In this document: positions 14,321 to 31,662 of the stretch, one piece after another
Position numbering within the stretch: the stretch's first letter is position 1
Layout of the letters: every line of letters begins with the position of its first letter
Origin: a virus
Lineage: Duplodnaviria > Caudoviricetes
Length of the DNA stretch: 34,007 nt
Strand: one strand, 5' to 3'
IMG/VR virus record: IMGVR_UViG_3300034073_000494
Location: 1 to 34,007 of that record
Notes under the pieces: model-generated
What the model was told of the DNA's origin: nothing
Database searches by the model: none
The model's input: only the letters and a program-made list of their open reading frames with translations
Program-made: the position numbers and the translations under genes

Positions 14321-14437
14321 TCACCAAAACTCTCGTCCGCCGCGACTGCTGCGTACGTTTGGCGGGGGAACCTGCCGCCAAGAATAATCTTTGTACTCTC
14401 TCCATCTTTTGAGCCAACGCTTAATCATGTTGATCAT
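14321..14437 (-). CDS. small basic hypothetical protein
   Basis: MINMIKRWLKRWREYKDYSWRQVPPPNVRSSRGGREFW after a GGTGGAG RBS. Confidence 0.45.
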   Translation of the reverse strand: MINMIKRWLKRWREYKDYSWRQVPPPNVRSSRGGREFW

Positions 14438-15557
14438 TCTCCACCTTGTTGATTCGTTCGCCAATCCAGCGCATGACGGGTACGGCCATTGAGTTGCCGA
14501 GGGCTTTGTATCTTGGCCCATCAGGTGACTCTGGCTTGTTGCGCCACGGGATGTTGGTGTAGCCATCGGGGAAGCCTTGCAAGCGTTCGCACTCAACGGG
14601 GGTGAGGCGGCGCACTTGCATGGCGGGAGTCATCACGCTGCCTTCAAACCCACCACCTTCTGTGCGTGCCTTAAGCGTTCCAAAACCATCAAGGCGTGCG
14701 TTCTGTTCTTCATCTAATCCAATGGCCACCGGCTGCGCCACCACATTCTGCCCACGGTCAGCGCAAGGTGAGCTGTCGTGCCGGGCGGTGAGACTGCCCG
14801 CCACGTCGCCAAATTGGGTGATGGGTTGCGCCACCGCCGGCACTTGATTGCGTTGCAGCATCGCTGTTTCTTTGGGGTCAAGTCCTCTGGCATCGCCGCC
14901 TGACTGCCAATCAAAGACTACGGGCAAGGTTTCGGTTTCTGAGTCGTAACGCTTTCCAACGCCTGCTGTAAGGCACTTGGCAGTTTCTTGCCGCGCTTCT
15001 CTGCTCGGCGGAGTATCCCGCCGCACGCTTTCGGACTCAAAAAGAACCTTGGCGGGATGTCTCCAATCTCCAAGGTATCCGACAACGAACACACGACGGC
15101 GGCGCTGGGCCACTCCGAACCACTGAGCGTCCAAGACTCTGTACGCCCACCCATACCCCAACTCCCCCAGCGCCCCGAGGAAGGTTCCAAAATCCCGTCC
15201 TCCGTTGCTCGACAGGACGCCGGGGACGTTTTCCCAGACAATCCATCTAGGCCGCTGACGTTGAGCGATTGCAAGAAAGGTAAGCATGAGGTTTCCTCTA
15301 GGGTCGGCAAGCCCTCGTCTGAGTCCGGCCACTGAGAATGACTGGCATGGGGTTCCTCCCACGAGAAGGTCGATTGAATCAAGGTTCCACTCCTCAAATT
15401 GCGTCATGTCACCAAGGTTAGGTACATCAGGATAGTGATGCGCCAACACGGCTGACGGGAATTTCTCAATGTCACTGAAGGCCACGGGCTGCCAGCCCAT
15501 GTGATGCCACGCTACGGTGGCGGCCTCAATGCCAGAGCAGACAGAGAGATACTTCAC
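14421..15557 (-). CDS. DNA (cytosine-5) methyltransferase
   Basis: Motif I variant CSGIEA, IV GGTPCQSFS, VI WENVPG, VIII QRRRRVF, IX RRLTPVECERLQGFP and X YKALGNS; GTG start at 15557 overlaps the upstream stop. Confidence 0.95.
   Translation of the reverse strand: MKYLSVCSGIEAATVAWHHMGWQPVAFSDIEKFPSAVLAHHYPDVPNLGDMTQFEEWNLDSIDLLVGGTPCQSFSVAGLRRGLADPRGNLMLTFLAIAQRQRPRWIVWENVPGVLSSNGGRDFGTFLGALGELGYGWAYRVLDAQWFGVAQRRRRVFVVGYLGDWRHPAKVLFESESVRRDTPPSREARQETAKCLTAGVGKRYDSETETLPVVFDWQSGGDARGLDPKETAMLQRNQVPAVAQPITQFGDVAGSLTARHDSSPCADRGQNVVAQPVAIGLDEEQNARLDGFGTLKARTEGGGFEGSVMTPAMQVRRLTPVECERLQGFPDGYTNIPWRNKPESPDGPRYKALGNSMAVPVMRWIGERINKVENDQHD
14918..15397 (-). CDS. nested alternative-frame ORF, M.EcoHK31I beta-like
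   Basis: 159 open codons on the same strand in a shifted frame; SSGRWGSWGM...CSLSDTLE...FFLSPKACGGILRRAEKRGKKLP resembles my recollection of the EcoHK31I beta N-terminal region; start uncertain. Confidence 0.55.
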   Translation of the reverse strand: MRSGTLIQSTFSWEEPHASHSQWPDSDEGLPTLEETSCLPFLQSLNVSGLDGLSGKTSPASCRATEDGILEPSSGRWGSWGMGGRTESWTLSGSEWPSAAVVCSLSDTLEIGDIPPRFFLSPKACGGILRRAEKRGKKLPSALQQALESVTTQKPKPCP

Positions 15558-15667
15558 CAGTATCGCTCCACTGCCATACCAACGAGTGCGATGCCGGCGA
15601 GTACCCAACAAGCCTTGGCGAGCATCCACCATTCTTGCGGGGAGGCCGCTGCGGTAATTACATCCAT
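15554..15667 (-). CDS. 37-aa membrane micro-protein (not in ORF track)
   Basis: MDVITAAASPQEWWMLAKACWVLAGIALVGMAVERYW; RBS GGAGG; stop overlaps the MTase GTG. Confidence 0.55.
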   Translation of the reverse strand: MDVITAAASPQEWWMLAKACWVLAGIALVGMAVERYW

Positions 15668-16367: not shown

Positions 16368-16412
16368 GAACTTCTTGAAAAATAATTTCTACACAGGGCA
16401 AGGATGTCTTGA
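16364..16412. promoter_or_regulatory. two putative operators CAAG-N5-CTTG
   Basis: TCAAGAACTTCTTGA (perfect 7-1-7 palindrome, 16364-16378) and CAAGGATGTCTTG (16399-16411) in the divergent intergenic region. Confidence 0.6.
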
Positions 16413-16426
16413 TAGGATTTAAGGGT

Positions 16427-16648
16427 ATGAACAACCACCGCATATCGCCGCAGAAGGCGGCCTTACTCCATGCTGTCTCGCAAGCCGGCGGGCAGGCAGA
16501 ATTGGCTCGTAAACTCAAGGTAAAGCCGCAAGCCGTGCATCAGTGGCTTACCGCTGGCAGAGTGCCACCCCTGCGCGTGCTGGCCGTAGAGGCCGCCACA
16601 GGCGTTTCTAGGACGGCGCTTAGACCAGACTTGTATCCGGGGGATTGA
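16427..16648 (+). CDS. Cro-like HTH regulator (YdaS family)
   Basis: AGGQAELARKLKVKPQAVHQW...VPPLRVLAVEAATGVSRTALRPDLY. Confidence 0.9.
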   Translation: MNNHRISPQKAALLHAVSQAGGQAELARKLKVKPQAVHQWLTAGRVPPLRVLAVEAATGVSRTALRPDLYPGD

Positions 16649-19320: not shown

Positions 19321-19519
19321 GAATGGGCTGGATGACTTCTGGCTGTGGACGACGGCGTGCCGTAGGTACTCCATCAATCCCAGCACGGTGAACAAGGAGA
19401 CGGTGTTCACGCTGGTCAGGCGAGATAGGCACAAGGCGCAGCCTCGTGTCATCGACCGATTACAAACGCTGGAGGCGGCTAAAGAGAGGGCTGAGGTACA
19501 TGCGCGTTATGGCGAATAG
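19277..19519 (+). CDS. hypothetical protein
   Basis: 80 aa ending TLEAAKERAEVH, a common small-phage-protein ending. Confidence 0.5.
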   Translation: MERLERNQVGLTWIENGLDDFWLWTTACRRYSINPSTVNKETVFTLVRRDRHKAQPRVIDRLQTLEAAKERAEVHARYGE

Positions 19520-19820
19520 ATGCCCTGTATGCTTTGTGCCTAAGCGTGGCGGCAAGCGTTGCGGCTACCATGCCGAGCAACGTGCCAGAGGGATGAGTGA
19601 CGATTACATCCGTGAGTCGGTAGCCAAGACGCTGGAACGCAATCAGGTCATCCAGATTGTCTGTGAGGCTGTCGATGATGCTCGGCTGAGTTCTAAGCCT
19701 GAGTCGAGGCAGCGGTCACGTCGCAAGCCTAAGCCGCGTGAGGTCTTGACCGTTCGTGGTTACCTGATACGAGAGTTGTGCAATGCTGTAGACCTTGGAA
19801 GGCAAACAGCGAGCTGGTAA
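19509..19820 (+). CDS. hypothetical protein with N-terminal CxxC...CxxH
   Basis: MANRCPVCFVPKRGGKRCGYH; stop coupled to the resolvase start (TAATG). Confidence 0.5.
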   Translation: MANRCPVCFVPKRGGKRCGYHAEQRARGMSDDYIRESVAKTLERNQVIQIVCEAVDDARLSSKPESRQRSRRKPKPREVLTVRGYLIRELCNAVDLGRQTASW

Positions 19821-20143
19821 TGGGACTGAGACAACGGCAGAGAGGCGCTGAGACAGAGCGTGAGGTCTGCAAAATCATCACGGAAAAGACCGGGTGGCAA
19901 ACTAATCGAATCTTGGGGCAGGCTAGAGACGGCGGCGCTGACGTGCGCCTTGGCCAGTTTCTGGTTGAGGTCAAGAGGCGGAAAGGCATAGCCGTCTACG
20001 AATGGCTTGAGCAGTGCCAGAAAGCCTGTGGCGAGAATGACAAGCCGGTTGTGATTGCAAGAGGCGACCACAAAGGGTTTATCGTGATTCAGCCGCTGGA
20101 TGATTGGCTGGACATGGCCAAGAAAGAATTGCCGGAGCGGTAA
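19820..20143 (+). CDS. Holliday junction resolvase (Hjc-like PD-(D/E)XK)
   Basis: RQRGAETEREV...GGAD...LVEVKRRK...PVVIAR. Confidence 0.8.
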   Translation: MGLRQRQRGAETEREVCKIITEKTGWQTNRILGQARDGGADVRLGQFLVEVKRRKGIAVYEWLEQCQKACGENDKPVVIARGDHKGFIVIQPLDDWLDMAKKELPER

Positions 20144-20144
20144 C

Positions 20145-20444
20145 GTGCGTTGTCCGAAATGCTCCAAGCCAAGCGAGGTCGTCAAGGTCTATCAGTTTGA
20201 GTGTGAGGCGAGGCGGCGACGGCAATGCACTCGCTGCGGCCATCGGTTTACGACGAGCGAGCGGCTCTGGCGGCGCGTCTACGCCGATGAGAAAAAGGCT
20301 GTGGTGCCTAAGACCAGAAAGACCCGAAACAAGCCCGAGCTGATTTACCGAACGCAATACAGCAACTTTGACGTGGTGTCCGTGACTGATTACGACATGG
20401 ATGCCGAGGACGTATCAACCTATGTTCACTGGAAGGATGACTGA
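20145..20444 (+). CDS. Zn-ribbon protein (NrdR N-terminal-like)
   Basis: MRCPKC...RRRRQCTRCGHRFTTSE; no ATP cone. Confidence 0.75.
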   Translation: MRCPKCSKPSEVVKVYQFECEARRRRQCTRCGHRFTTSERLWRRVYADEKKAVVPKTRKTRNKPELIYRTQYSNFDVVSVTDYDMDAEDVSTYVHWKDD

Positions 20445-20962
20445 TGCCGGGCACACCGATTAAGCGCGCCAAGCGAGAGAAAGCTCGGCAAATAATGGAA
20501 ACTACCGACTTTTGGGAACAGCTCTGGGAGCATCTTGCTGAGGGCAACACGCTTAGGAGCTTTACGGGTGACGGCTCAACCGTGACTTACGGCCAGCTCT
20601 TGAAACGCATCCAGAGCGACCCTGAAATGAATGAGCGATATGAGACGGTGCGCAATGCTCGTGCCTTGGCTAACGCTGAGAGGATTGAGCAGCTTGCCGA
20701 GAAGGTTGAACTGGAACAGATTGACCCGAACGCTGCGAAGGTTTCGATTGGGGCAAGGCAATGGCTGGCCGAGCGAATGGACCCGAAGCGATGGGGCAAT
20801 AAGATTCAGCAGGACGTGAAGATTACCGACACGACACAACTGCACCTTGAGGCAGTCCGTAACTTGATGCGAACGGTGAGCGTGCAGCAGCCCGAAAGGC
20901 TTACCAGCGACACATCGACGGACAGCGCCGCTGGCGCGCGCGGCACTACAGAACGCGAATGA
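20444..20962 (+). CDS. terS: terminase small subunit
   Basis: HLAEGNTLRS...RYETVR...ARQWLAERMDPKRWGNK (Sf6 gp1-like); upstream of terL. Confidence 0.8.
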   Translation: MPGTPIKRAKREKARQIMETTDFWEQLWEHLAEGNTLRSFTGDGSTVTYGQLLKRIQSDPEMNERYETVRNARALANAERIEQLAEKVELEQIDPNAAKVSIGARQWLAERMDPKRWGNKIQQDVKITDTTQLHLEAVRNLMRTVSVQQPERLTSDTSTDSAAGARGTTERE

Positions 20963-20963
20963 G

Positions 20964-20983
20964 AATGAGAATCATTCGCATTT
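20964..20983. promoter_or_regulatory. Fur-box-like site 1
   Basis: AATGAGAATCATTCGCATT matches AATGATAATCATTATCATT at 16/19 positions; extra GAATGA half-site upstream. Confidence 0.6.
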
Positions 20984-20993
20984 ACAGCTCTGG

Positions 20994-21025
20994 TTTATGC
21001 ACGGTTTTATGCAGGATTTTATGCA
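20994..21025 (+). repeat. three TTTATGCA direct repeats with 12-bp period
   Basis: Copies at 20994, 21006 and 21018. Confidence 0.8.
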
Positions 21026-21045
21026 CCGAATAAAACGCGAAATCG

Positions 21046-21058
21046 TAAGTGCTTGATG
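21046..21058 (-). promoter_or_regulatory. IHF-like site
   Basis: Minus strand CATCAAGCACTTA vs WATCAANNNNTTR (one mismatch). Confidence 0.45.
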
Positions 21059-21078
21059 CGTAAGGAGTTATTGCGAGG

Positions 21079-21106
21079 ACTGCGCATAATACCCATTATG
21101 TTAAAT
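21079..21106 (+). other. dif: XerC/XerD dif-like recombination site
   Basis: ACTGCGCATAA-TACCCA-TTATGTTAAAT vs E. coli dif GGTGCGCATAA-TGTATA-TTATGTTAAAT: XerD arm 11/11, XerC arm 9/11, 6-bp spacer. Confidence 0.9.
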
Positions 21107-21132
21107 CGACCACTGTGCGGACAGGCTATCCG

Positions 21133-21145
21133 CAACCCGTTGATT
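21133..21145 (-). promoter_or_regulatory. IHF consensus site
   Basis: Minus strand AATCAACGGGTTG, a perfect WATCAANNNNTTR match. Confidence 0.55.
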
Positions 21146-21165
21146 TACCTCGGGTTTTGAGTAGA

Positions 21166-21207
21166 TGCAAATGAGAATCATTCGCATTTGCAGTTGAGAA
21201 TCATTTA
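21166..21207. promoter_or_regulatory. Fur-box-like site 2 (extended palindrome plus partial third copy)
   Basis: TGCAAATGAGAATCATTCGCATTTGCA is a 27-bp palindrome with one mismatch; 21170-21189 is identical to 20964-20983; followed by TGAGAATCATT. Confidence 0.6.
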
Positions 21208-21417
21208 CACCCCCCCCGGCAGGTACCCCCACCGGGGGGCGGGCGCTGGCGTAACCCCACAGGCGCCGATTTTGGAGGTTTTTGCATGACCCTATGGCAA
21301 GGTACTATCTTGACCCTAAATCGCCCCAAAACGGCTCACAGGCCGTTATACGGCAATCTAGGCTAACCCCCCCCATACCACCCCATCACAAAACACGCCA
21401 CAGCGCAAAAAAATTTT

Positions 21418-22821
21418 ATGCCTCAAAACGTTTTCGCCGACTTCGTGACTCGCTACCACCAAGACCCTGTGCTATTTGTGCAGGAGGTGCTGGGCATTGA
21501 CCCGCAGCCGTGGCAGGGTGAATTTCTTAAAGCCATCGCCCGTGGCGAACGCCGCATCAGCGTCAAGTCTGCTCACGGCGTGGGCAAATCCTCGGCCTGC
21601 TCGTGGGCCATGCTCTGGGTCATCCTGACGCATTACCCCAGCAAGCAGGTCTGTACCGCCCCGACCAGCTCGCAGTTGTTTGACGCCCTGTGGGCAGAGC
21701 TGCGCGCCAACATCACCAAGCTGCCTGACGCGCTGCAAACGCTGCTGGACGTGACCGCTGACCGCGTGGCATTGAAAGCAGCCCCCGACGAGTGTTTTAT
21801 TTCTGCCCGTACCGCCCGCGCCGAAAAGCCGGAAGCCTTGCAGGGGGTGCACTCCACAGGCCGCGTGGTGCTATACGCCGACGAGGCATCGGGCGTGGAC
21901 GAGCAAGTATTCGAGGCGGCCATTGGTTCAATGTCGGGCCACAGTGCCACGACCGTGTTGACCAGCAACCCGACCCGCACAAGCGGCTTCTTCTTCGAGA
22001 CGCACAACCGCGCCAAGGATGAATGGTGGCGCATGACCATTGCCGCGCCAGATTGTCCGTTTGTGTCGCCAGACTATGTGCGCCAAGTGGCGATTCAGTA
22101 TGGCGAGCACAGCAACGTGTACCGAGTGCGCGTCTTGGGGGAGTTTCCTTTAGCGGATGACGACACGCTGATACCGCTGGAGTTGGCGCAGATGGCCGTC
22201 AACCGCGACGTTATCCAAAACCCAGATGCGCCAATCCTGTGGGGCGTAGACGTTGCACGCTTTGGCACGGATAGCTCGGCCTTATGCAAGCGCCAGCAAA
22301 ACGTGATACTAGAACCCATCAAGACATGGAAAAACCTAGACCTCATGTCCCTCACGGGCGCCATCCTGCACGAGTACGAATCGGCCGACTTTAAGCAACG
22401 CCCCGCCGAGATATTGGTGGACAGCATCGGCCTTGGTGCAGGCGTGGTGGATCGATTGCGCGAGATGAAACTACCCGTTCGCGGCATTAACGTGGGCGAG
22501 TCGCCTGCCGTAAAGGGCCAATACATGAACCTGCGTGCTGAGTTGTGGGGCAAGGCCAAGGCGTGGTTGGAGGCACGCGATTGCAAGCTGCCGCGTGATG
22601 AGCAATTGGTCAATGAACTGTCATCACCGCGCTATAGCTTCATGAGCAATGGTAAGCTCAAGCTAGAGTCCAAGGATGACATGAAGCGCCGAGGGTTAGC
22701 CTCGCCCGACCGCGCTGACGCCTTTGTGCTGACCTTTGCAAGCGAGGCTGCGACCGTGGGCGGCTCGTACACGCCGACGTGGAATAAGACGGTAAAGCGA
22801 CAGATTCGAGGTGTGGTATGA
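21418..22821 (+). CDS. terL: terminase large subunit
   Basis: PQPWQ Q-motif, Walker A SAHGVGKS, Walker B LYADEASG, LTSNP, nuclease GVDVARFGTD and SPDRADA. Confidence 0.95.
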   Translation: MPQNVFADFVTRYHQDPVLFVQEVLGIDPQPWQGEFLKAIARGERRISVKSAHGVGKSSACSWAMLWVILTHYPSKQVCTAPTSSQLFDALWAELRANITKLPDALQTLLDVTADRVALKAAPDECFISARTARAEKPEALQGVHSTGRVVLYADEASGVDEQVFEAAIGSMSGHSATTVLTSNPTRTSGFFFETHNRAKDEWWRMTIAAPDCPFVSPDYVRQVAIQYGEHSNVYRVRVLGEFPLADDDTLIPLELAQMAVNRDVIQNPDAPILWGVDVARFGTDSSALCKRQQNVILEPIKTWKNLDLMSLTGAILHEYESADFKQRPAEILVDSIGLGAGVVDRLREMKLPVRGINVGESPAVKGQYMNLRAELWGKAKAWLEARDCKLPRDEQLVNELSSPRYSFMSNGKLKLESKDDMKRRGLASPDRADAFVLTFASEAATVGGSYTPTWNKTVKRQIRGVV

Positions 22822-23483
22822 AATGGCAAGACTTCTTTTTGACTGACCCCTACGAGGGGGCCAAGCTGGTACCGCTAGACCTACAGGGCTGGGCCTCCGA
22901 TGACCCCATCCTTGAGGCGTGCATCAAGAACACGCAGCCCAAGCTGATTATCGAGGTCGGCTCATGGAAAGGGGCCTCTGCTATCCACATGGCAAAAGTT
23001 TGTAAGCGCCTCGGCCTAGACACCAAGATTTTGTGCGTCGATACATGGCTCGGCGGCGTCGAGACGTATCAAATGCACGACGGCATCAACCGCTGGATAC
23101 ACGAATCTTTGCGCCACCAAGCGGGCTATCCGCGCCTGCACGAAACCTTCATGTCAAACGTCATCCGCGAGGGCTTCAAGGATGTCATTCTGCCGCTACC
23201 GTTGCCCTCCACGGTAGCCGCAGAGGTTATCCGGCATCGTGGCATTGAGGCCGAGTTTATTTACATCGACGGTTCGCACGAGTATGACGACGTGGTGCTG
23301 GACTTGAAGGGTTATTGGAAGCTCACGAAAAACGGCGGCATCATGGGCGGCGATGATTATCTGTCATGGCCCGGCGTGACCCGCGCGGTAGACGAGTTTT
23401 TGCAGCAAGAGGGCCGCGCCTCGGTGCGCCGTGACCGTAAGTTTGCCATCTCCAAGGGGGCATCACTTGAGGGCGTGGTGTGA
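22818..23483 (+). CDS. class I SAM-dependent methyltransferase (Methyltransf_24-like)
   Basis: IEVGSWKGASA, CVDTW, YIDGSHEYDDV and GDDY motifs. Confidence 0.85.
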   Translation: MKWQDFFLTDPYEGAKLVPLDLQGWASDDPILEACIKNTQPKLIIEVGSWKGASAIHMAKVCKRLGLDTKILCVDTWLGGVETYQMHDGINRWIHESLRHQAGYPRLHETFMSNVIREGFKDVILPLPLPSTVAAEVIRHRGIEAEFIYIDGSHEYDDVVLDLKGYWKLTKNGGIMGGDDYLSWPGVTRAVDEFLQQEGRASVRRDRKFAISKGASLEGVV

Positions 23484-30126: not shown

Positions 30127-30449
30127 AAACGCCGGCATGGCAGCGGGCTGAGGGACAGTCAAAATCCGGCGGATTAAATGCCAAGGGCCGTGCCAGCTAC
30201 AAGGCCGAGACGGGTGGCACGCTCAAGCCGCCAGTGAAAGGTGTGCCGAAATCTCCGCAAGAAATGCGGAGAAAAGGATCGTTTTTGACGCGCATGGGGT
30301 CGATGCCGGGGCTGTTGTTTGACGATGATGGCGATAAGACACGGCTCAAGTTAAGCCTTGAGGCGTGGGGGCATCGTGGGGACAAGGCGAGCGCCGTTGC
30401 CAAGGGGCGGCGGCTCTTGGAGCAATATAGGAAGCGCAAAGATGGCTGA
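30123..30449 (+). CDS. basic conserved phage protein (DUF6321-like)
   Basis: PAWQRAEGQSKSGGLNAKGRASY...SFLTRM...SLEAW. Confidence 0.65.
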   Translation: MKTPAWQRAEGQSKSGGLNAKGRASYKAETGGTLKPPVKGVPKSPQEMRRKGSFLTRMGSMPGLLFDDDGDKTRLKLSLEAWGHRGDKASAVAKGRRLLEQYRKRKDG

Positions 30450-31662
30450 GAGGCGACTGCCTAGAGGTTTGCTTGACCCAGAGTCTCAGGCGATTGCCGA
30501 GGCTTATGAGGCAATTCCGTCTGTACGGCGGCAAACCCGTGGGCTGTTATCTTTAGAGCCGCAAGAAGACCAGAGCATGATGCAGACCGCTATTGAGGCG
30601 GCGCTTGGGTTTATCCCCGGCGTGGGACAATTGCTTGCTGGACGTGACATCGAACGCGCACGCCGTGCCGGCGACCCTGCTGCGGCTGCGATGGCGGCCA
30701 CGGAGTTTTTGCCGTTTGGTAGGTTGGCGGGGATGATGCGCCGCCCCGGCCCCATCATGTCAGAGATTGATGTGTACCACGGCAGCCCGCACCGCTTTGA
30801 GGAATTTGACGCAAGCAAGATTGGCACGGGCGAAGGCGCACAGGCGTATGGGCATGGCATCTACTTTGCGGAAAACCCCGATGTTGCACGCACATATCGT
30901 CAAATACCCGAATTTGATGATTCGGGCTTGGGCGGTTACGTCATGCCGCGAGCCGCATCAGACGAAATACTCGCTTTATACAACGATGCTCAAAAACTTA
31001 ACGACGCAAATTGGGAAAGCGGCTTAGGTGAGGCGTCGATAAAGGTCTACAACGAAATACTGCATGGCGAATACGGCCCGCAACAGCTAAAAAAGAAGGT
31101 TGAGCAATGGTATTGGGATGACCCAACGAAATTAGCCGAAGCGCAAGACGCAGTGAGAAAGGCTGCAAAAGTCGAAAGCCGTTACAAAGGCAACCTTTAC
31201 AAAGCCGACCTCCCCGACGAAATGGTAGATCGGATGCTGGATTGGGATAAGCCGTTGAGTGAGCAACGCGAACTCGCAACTCCAATTTTAAAAGAACTGG
31301 GATATTTGCGTCCTAATGACAACGGCCCACGGCAATTCGCGCAAGCCGTAAAAGCATTAAACATGGAACACGGTGGATTTGGAGAAAGCGGCGCAAATGG
31401 AATGGTGTTATTTAAGGCGATTTATAAAGGACTTGAGCAAGGGAATCCAAAAGCCATTGATTTTGCAAAACGAATGAATCTTGGCGAGCAAGCTATGTTT
31501 ATGGAAGCCTCTCCATTAGCGTCAGAGGTTATGAAACGCATGGGCATCCCCGGCATCAAGTACCTTGACGCAGGCAGCCGAGGCCAAGGCGGTAGCGGCA
31601 CCCGCAACTTTGTGGTGTTTCCGGGCGAAGAAAAGAAAGTCAAAATCTTAAAGAGAGAGTGA
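30442..31662 (+). CDS. ADP-ribosyltransferase-fold (polyvalent-protein ART-like) protein
   Basis: VYHGSPHRFEEFD...GTGEGAQAYGHGIYFAE...GIPGIKYLD...NFVVF; start trimmed to ATG 30442. Confidence 0.65.
   Translation: MAERRLPRGLLDPESQAIAEAYEAIPSVRRQTRGLLSLEPQEDQSMMQTAIEAALGFIPGVGQLLAGRDIERARRAGDPAAAAMAATEFLPFGRLAGMMRRPGPIMSEIDVYHGSPHRFEEFDASKIGTGEGAQAYGHGIYFAENPDVARTYRQIPEFDDSGLGGYVMPRAASDEILALYNDAQKLNDANWESGLGEASIKVYNEILHGEYGPQQLKKKVEQWYWDDPTKLAEAQDAVRKAAKVESRYKGNLYKADLPDEMVDRMLDWDKPLSEQRELATPILKELGYLRPNDNGPRQFAQAVKALNMEHGGFGESGANGMVLFKAIYKGLEQGNPKAIDFAKRMNLGEQAMFMEASPLASEVMKRMGIPGIKYLDAGSRGQGGSGTRNFVVFPGEEKKVKILKRE

Follow-up and report, generated by a model that had tools for sequence, protein, structure and literature searches.

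The gap between the terminase genes terS and terL in the phage genome described here carries a dif-type XerC/XerD site with IHF-like sites beside it. Across a family of related tailed phages this site is accompanied in most members by an IHF motif at helically phased distances, and the outer position of the block, held in our genome by Fur-like boxes, appears from its sequence to accept several unrelated host motifs. The block as a whole is not a conserved iron switch. The reading that we prefer, at a probability of about 0.5, is that host XerCD would recombine two terminal copies of dif, circularising or joining phage genomes, with IHF as the architectural helper.

The window, that is the whole stretch of DNA that was analysed, is an entire virus record of 34,007 nt (estimated completeness 95%) and represents a near-complete podovirus-like genome. 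Its ORFs include those for portal, scaffold, head, tail fibre and DNA ejection proteins, a primase-helicase-like protein, an exonuclease and a RusA-like resolvase, with no DNA polymerase among the ORFs scanned, and our guess at its host, from motif matches and genome bins, is a betaproteobacterium. The motif block occupies the whole terS-terL gap, the left Fur-like cluster overlapping the terS stop codon, and comprises, with its neighbours:

19778..20143, plus strand: RusA-like Holliday-junction resolvase, two genes 5' of terS (phrog_244, E 8e-17)
20444..20962, plus strand: terS, Sf6-like terminase small subunit (phrog_1482, E 7e-19; PF20901, E 6e-15)
about 20895..21253, no strand assigned: predicted direct terminal repeat, projected from the phiM5 limits via the C-run and covering the whole block
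20955..20983, plus strand: left exchangeable slot, two overlapping Fur-like boxes 6 nt apart
20994..21025, plus strand: TTTATGCA three times with a 12-nt period (starts 20994, 21006 and 21018)
21046..21058, minus strand: IHF-like site on the XerC side, 20 nt from dif, 1 mismatch
21079..21106, plus strand: dif-type XerC/XerD site of 11-6-11 bp layout (XerC arm 21079-21089, core TACCCA 21090-21095, XerD arm 21096-21106)
21133..21145, minus strand: second IHF site, 26 nt from the XerD arm, 0 mismatches
21166..21209, plus strand: right Fur-like palindrome (20-mer 21170-21189) with a partial third Fur-like copy (21195-21209)
21210..21260, plus strand: conserved C-run/G-run element ending in AACCCCAC, near-invariant in the alignment of relatives
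21418..22821, plus strand: terL, terminase large subunit (phrog_2, E 2e-43; 53.8% identity to phiM5 TerL)

Elsewhere in the window, a Cro/YdaS-like HTH gene (16409-16648, plus strand) faces the leftward early genes, and no CI-type partner was found for it. One ORF of 434 aa in the structural region (30358-31662, plus strand) shows a weak ART-PolyVal match (E 6e-7, just under the cut-off), and another, of 159 aa (14918-15397, minus strand), lies in a different frame inside a DNA cytosine methyltransferase gene (14421-15632).

Each of the motifs that an earlier sequence-only reading had listed in the block, the three TTTATGCA repeats included, was found where that reading had placed it, and the two IHF sites do share one orientation, both lying on the minus strand. 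The nest is not symmetric, since the IHF pair is centred near dif (21095.5 versus 21092.5) and the Fur pair is off-centre (21076.5). The earlier reading had missed the overlapping Fur-like repeat 6 nt further left, which starts at 20955 and runs over the terS stop, as well as the third Fur-like piece (21195-21209) and the conserved C-run/G-run element from 21210 on. The Fur-like 20-mers at 20964-20983 and 21170-21189 are identical, and at up to 3 mismatches this 20-mer has three matches in the window (one of them being the second box read on the reverse strand) versus 0.02 expected, with none in 100 shuffles. The dif site differs from that of Escherichia coli (reference sequence from the accessible part of PMC3603311) at 2 of the 22 arm positions and is the sole such match in the window, again with none in 100 shuffles. 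It is set apart from a chromosomal dif by its core, TACCCA, and by its surroundings, the window holding only three KOPS, without polarity towards dif. The TTTATGCA repeats are degenerate DnaA-box-like sequences (1, 2 and 1 mismatches). Taken alone, the IHF matches are statistically weak (24 in the window at up to 1 mismatch versus 15.3 +/- 4.2 by chance), and the support for these sites therefore comes from their conserved spacing to dif and not from match counts. No match to the ARG-box consensus used was found at up to 3 mismatches within 19400-22920. A hairpin at the C/G element was considered and rejected, as it folds no better than shuffles (z -1.3).

To follow the block through the family, loci were gathered by TerS (35), by TerL (the best 80 of 388) and from genome bins (the best 80 of 119). 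The tabulated set comprised the window, 115 viral loci and 3 bin loci, and once duplicates and loci without a TerL start or C/G element in the flank were left out, 83 distinct loci remained, each with at least 300 nt of flank; as these loci share kinship, counts over them are not counts of independent events. A dif-like site is present in 81 of these 83 TerS/TerL-selected loci and missing from two, always 58-191 nt before the C-run, in the orientation of the window at 38 sites and inverted at 43. An IHF motif stands on the XerC side of dif at 67 of the 81 sites in three gap classes, 19-20 nt (25 loci), 31-32 nt (25) and 42-43 nt (17), in steps of approximately one helical turn; at two further sites the gap is a different one, and at 12 no such motif is seen. 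Whenever dif is inverted, the orientation of IHF follows dif and not terL, so IHF belongs with the Xer site and not with the terminase or with terL transcription. The XerC-side IHF site is thus the most conserved accessory element, and the earlier proposal of IHF as a partner of the Xer site is borne out in its geometry, by the side on which it lies, the phased gaps and the joint inversion. Of the 77 relatives compared for the outer slot, 62 also carry a second IHF-like site.

The core also differs from what is found in hosts. Phage cores end in CCA at 65 of the 81 sites, while only 3 of the 150 listed Burkholderiales matches (out of 239) have such a core, none of them with the phage layout. 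As this core is frequent in phage sites and rare in host matches, it suggests that selection acts on the exchange region and not on binding only. A motif-only scan of viral contigs gave 117 matches, 110 of them adjoining terS or terL homologues; its pattern required both the IHF motif and the CCA core, and it is thus not evidence for either. The same 20-nt gap between IHF and dif recurs in a distant clade that was found by motif alone. Chromosomal dif loci of Burkholderiales show a phage-like IHF/DnaA flank in 4 of 31 cases, with one isolated match each and the 20-nt gap in none, some of the 31 being chance matches to dif. As a pointer to host tropism, XerC arms of the ACGA/ACAG type were of little use, being matched in only 2 of 150 further genomes. 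Outside the family, most TerL relatives below approximately 60% identity are without the block, and no such block precedes terL in Venkman and three Manatee Spring genomes.

Some variants of the arrangement were also seen. In one clade of the family (L042-L044, L047, L048, L056-L058, L063, L065 and L073) the cores read CGGGCA or CGGGCG and IHF is missing; in most members a DnaA box takes the place held elsewhere by IHF, at 19 nt from the XerC arm, and another lies beyond the XerD arm, so that DnaA may substitute here for IHF. Four AT-rich virus records of 37-39 kb without PF00589 (L252, L303, L323 and L362) have a dif site with a TATCCA core (at approximately 2527 in L303) and an IHF motif 21 nt from it on the XerC side, with no homologues of the window's terS or terL beside it. 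Their dif arms look like those of Acinetobacter plasmid dif, and these records are a possible independent case of the IHF-Xer geometry. One named member of the family is Phage C72C1 (OQ984150; L119:1245-1430), whose terS-terL gap holds a Fur-like box, an IHF-like site and an inverted dif-like site (dif read by eye) with a core ending in CCA, and then the C-run.

As to the position of the block in the virion DNA, it likely lies in repeated genome ends, by analogy with Sinorhizobium phage phiM5 (MF074189), the closest named isolate by TerL (53.8% identity; portal 45.1%). phiM5, which is described as temperate (PMC10386132, accessible part), carries according to its GenBank annotation a 357-bp direct terminal repeat directly before terL, which reaches 315 nt upstream and 43 nt downstream of the C-run start. 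At the right end of this repeat stands a C-run/G-run element similar to ours, which by the same analogy likely marks the right genome end, the region of the terminase cut. Like the window, the phiM5 repeat has an IHF-like site; unlike the window, it lacks dif, and it shows no box of the Fur, Zur or DnaA type. The phiM5 ORF at the position of terS does not align with the TerS of the window. In the 83 loci, scanned from -2000 to +1000 around the C-run, the 300 nt before it hold 155 of 156 DnaA matches, all Zur and all XerD matches, 7 of 9 Fur and 76 of 83 IHF matches, a boundary partly imposed by the terS coding sequence. The placement in a terminal repeat is favoured because this boundary agrees with the limits of the phiM5 repeat (-315 to +43).

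Another example of dif in an end repeat comes from a blastn search of 50,697 phage records with the IHF-dif-IHF stretch. It matched 11 records, 8 of them Ralstonia T7-like phages, and the cultured Ralstonia phage RpT1 carries dif with a CCA-ending core in both copies of its 208-nt end repeat; no IHF or Fur match accompanies this dif. In the four best sequencing runs, which were available as unitigs only and may be where the window came from, no genome ends were discernible, and there was no pile-up of contig ends near the site. A rise in depth at 20672-21216 in runs X1 and X2 was rejected as an end signal, being confounded by strain variants, and X4 is flat; the end overlaps of 81 or 127 nt in five records classed as 'DTR' were read as assembly k-mers. 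As TerS is Sf6-like, headful packaging is possible, and a pac site near terS could still duplicate the site in the first headfuls. In Stenotrophomonas phage BUCT700 (L203:20-55) the first 55 nt of the genome start with a DnaA-like 9-mer and include an IHF-like stretch that matches window positions 21044-21065 at 21 of 22 positions.

On the reading that we prefer, virion DNA would carry the dif-IHF block at both ends through the terminal repeat, and host XerC and XerD would recombine the two dif copies, closing the incoming genome as a unit-length circle; alternatively, sister genomes would be joined head to tail and the dimers resolved later. IHF would take the place that PepA has at cer and psi, bending the XerC-side arm so that an accessory complex forms. 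The outer slot would recruit whichever host protein binds DNA tightly, Fur in the window and Zur or DnaA in relatives, to stabilise the synapse, its exchange paralleling that of ArgR and ArcA at these two sites. The core, unlike the chromosomal one, would favour self-recombination over integration. Speculatively, the RusA-like resolvase could complete an exchange begun by XerC only. The reading is weakened by the supercoiling that favours cer-type accessory synapses (PMC5357621, accessible part), since incoming linear DNA has none, and because the end position leans on one isolate, phiM5, with 53.8% TerL identity and without dif. A bolder version, in which the family consists of lytic podophages that close their linear genomes by XerCD with phased IHF, holds that each lineage fills the slot with its own host sensor (iron being read through Fur, zinc through Zur and replication state through DnaA), and that host state would thereby license circularisation and the start of infection; we offer it as a conjecture of low probability.

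The family bears on two questions: by what means short-repeat phages that have no recombinase circularise or link up, and what brings host-regulator boxes together at phage ends. For both it provides a natural series, with one dif-IHF geometry, three kinds of outer box, two orientations and three helical spacings. If XerCD closure is true, XerCD would be a borrowed Cre-like enzyme of lytic tailed phages and IHF would join PepA as an Xer accessory protein; if it fails, the series still bears on the idea of end-capping.

According to that idea, which we consider rather unlikely, the block would be an end cap or docking pad at which XerCD, IHF and Fur, Zur or DnaA coat the first-entering or free DNA end without any recombination, shielding it from nucleases or end-sensing defences, or helping or pacing DNA entry. 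The acceptance of unrelated host motifs in the outer slot fits this, as does phiM5, where only the IHF-like site is retained. Docking without recombination does exist, since the end regions of T5-like phages combine Fur, DnaA and LexA boxes but show no match to dif. One such case is the T5-like terminal repeat of Salmonella phage Sepoy (9520-9780; L204:721-980), whose injection-stop region lines up one LexA-type box, a pair of DnaA boxes and several Fur-like ones in a row. Davison suggests that DnaA binding is what halts T5 injection (bioRxiv 10.1101/866236, accessible part). Likewise, gel shifts show Fur binding upstream of the lambdoid terminase gene nohA (PMC2189734, accessible part). The nohA/nohB and T5 boxes resemble our block in placing host regulator boxes by terminase genes or terminal repeats, while the accessible parts of these two sources describe no Xer site, phased IHF or slot exchange. 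However, an end cap leaves unexplained both the constrained CCA core (65 of 81 sites) and the way in which IHF stays in helical phase with the XerC arm through inversions.

The lack of integration functions bears on a further alternative, in which the site would be the attP of a tailed IMEX, integrating at chromosomal dif via host XerCD and thereby splitting terS from terL. A tyrosine integrase (PF00589) was found in none of 23 family records, and an S24 (CI-type) repressor (PF00717), a serine recombinase (PF00239) and ParA (PF13614) each in none of 21. The missing integrase is what such an element would show, and gokushoviruses integrate in this way (PMC7062461, accessible part). In addition, 32 of the 81 cores read TGTCCA, matching the host core near XerC and differing near XerD, like VGJ-phi (PMC5357621, accessible part), the core is host-like in one distant clade, and the integrated relatives L128 and L130 have no XerD arm before terL. 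The known IMEX attP sites (VGJ-phi, TLC-phi, CTX-phi and the gokushovirus dif motifs), as far as the accessible sources describe them, are similarly integrase-less, with a dif-like site and an altered core, but they belong to filamentous phages and microviruses integrated at chromosomal dif, whereas no integrated form was found here and the phage site goes together with terS-terL and with phased IHF. Against integration stand the missing CI-type repressor and the lack of any provirus-class record among the 23. The closest TerL matches from genome bins (the best 80 of 119) are on short bin contigs and keep terS-dif-terL intact, and neither a dif-split prophage nor a hybrid site was found in bins, Burkholderiales matches or viral contigs. 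Searches for hybrids of phage IHF and host core gave no viral matches and four metagenome matches, all with the free-phage layout (ORF, IHF, 20 nt, dif, C-run; terL homologue in two) and forming a distant clade. These missing integrated forms are weak evidence, since the hosts are probably uncultured, and taking the two sides together we consider an attP function clearly unlikely. A separate locus (L242:8461; G299:C1:2182460) has a dif-like site with a CCA-ending core just 3' of a 353-codon ORF that looks integrase-like by eye.

The block lies between terS and terL and adjoins the likely cut element, and it could thus be a packaging architecture in which terminase would assemble on a scaffold of IHF and the repeats, in the manner of lambda cosB, dif being incidental. 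IHF has a role at lambda cos. However, in our family IHF moves and inverts with dif and not with terL or the C-run, and the outer repeats vary among three host consensus types while TerS stays 68-81% identical among relatives, which makes this reading very doubtful. The narrower suggestion of outer repeats as TerS-binding sites was rejected for the same reason, as three unrelated host consensus types alternate beside a conserved TerS.

The exchange of the outer slot also decides the fate of the iron-gated switch that the sequence-only reading had proposed, in which Fur at both boxes would control recombination, packaging or terL expression. The boxes themselves are of host grade. At up to 2 mismatches the left box is matched at 13 loci in two of five Burkholderiales genomes, with no control matches, and 8 of the 13 lie upstream of TonB-dependent iron receptors, so that by sequence it reads as a host-type Fur box. 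In the window, Fur-like boxes stand on both sides, and 8 relatives share this feature among 77 distinct ones that were selected by motif and had enough flank (7 non-family matches and 6 short loci were dropped). However, 41 of the 77 have a DnaA-type left slot, 21 a Zur-like and 13 a Fur-like one, and in 2 the slot is empty, so that 64 are without Fur on the left; the right Fur-like palindrome is not present in most relatives, and the complete Fur-IHF-dif-IHF-Fur nest occurs in only two. One example is locus L013, which shares 96.6% identity with the window across 320 nt of spacer, yet has the Zur-like TGTTATAACATAACA in place of the left Fur box. On a TerL tree of 42 rows the slot type changes 8 times (minimum 3), and Fur alone changes 5 times without clustering (122 of 500 shuffles gave as low a count), the long branch of the window being uncertain. 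TTATGC is present in one to three copies in the Fur and Zur lineages and in none of the DnaA-array lineages.

The Zur label is the weaker of the two, judged by matches in host genomes to an assumed Zur consensus. The motif gave 13 matches in 6 of 61 host genomes versus 16 control matches, with no overall excess, and a single match in the five-genome search. Five of the 13, two of them duplicates of a single element, stand before genes of kinds typical for zinc regulons, namely those for a Fur-family regulator, CobW, DUF4198 or TonB receptors. The anticipated co-occurrence of the motif types in relatives thus stands for dif with IHF (dif 81/83, phased IHF 67/81) and largely fails for Fur (left slot 13/77). 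As the slot holds several unrelated host motifs, with the DnaA-type (41) and Zur-like (21) versions dominating and the full nest confined to 2 of 77, iron sensing is not the conserved function, and iron gating as the purpose of the architecture is not supported. Control of terL transcription, another part of the proposal, finds no support in 20850-21450, where there are no sigma-70-type promoters versus 0.6 expected and, for this promoter type, no Fur box overlapping a repressed promoter. We thus consider the switch most improbable for the family, and iron may modulate the site in the window's own lineage.

A mimic of an origin or of a DnaA-regulatory locus (oriC, datA or DARS) paired with dif, to which DnaA boxes with IHF in most relatives and the lack of a DNA polymerase among the scanned ORFs might point, has hardly any chance of being correct, as a consensus DnaA box is missing on the left in the window and in the Zur and Fur lineages, and the phage has a primase-helicase-like protein of its own.

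With regard to known systems, the nearest likeness is to the plasmid sites cer (ColE1; PepA with ArgR) and psi (pSC101; PepA with ArcA), in which an XerC/XerD core with a non-chromosomal centre is likewise accompanied by flanking host-protein sites within approximately 180 bp (PMC5357621, accessible part). In both, as in our family, the outer regulator varies between versions and the accessory sites stand at fixed geometry beside the core. Unlike in these plasmids, the phage accessory set consists of IHF and Fur, Zur or DnaA motifs, with no ARG box found, and the site is that of a tailed phage: it stands at the packaging locus, is likely part of a terminal repeat and would probably act on linear DNA. 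By this analogy the phage block may at most work like cer and psi, and we do not class it as a member of that group. Another system is the loxP/Cre of P1, also a site-specific recombination site of a tailed phage, which serves circularisation through terminal redundancy. Unlike P1, which encodes its own recombinase, our family encodes none and would borrow host XerCD. Among tailed phages, phiPLPE is reported to carry a dif site. Dimer resolution is mentioned for the P1 prophage (PMC5357621, accessible part), and phages using Xer are known among filamentous phages and microviruses (PMC7062461, accessible part). In the mostly open-access literature searched, we found no description of a dif site together with phased IHF, be it beside terminase genes or in a terminal repeat.

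A final observation concerns the terL side of the block. Between the C/G element and terL there are approximately 140 extra nt (window 21261-21417) common to the window and L013; the TerL of the window is only 76% identical to its best relative, versus up to 81% for TerS; and a variant in sequencing run X2 departs from the window at 21258. Because of the extra stretch, the gap between the TerL and TerS identities and the point of divergence in X2, this suggests that terL alleles have been swapped at the C/G element.
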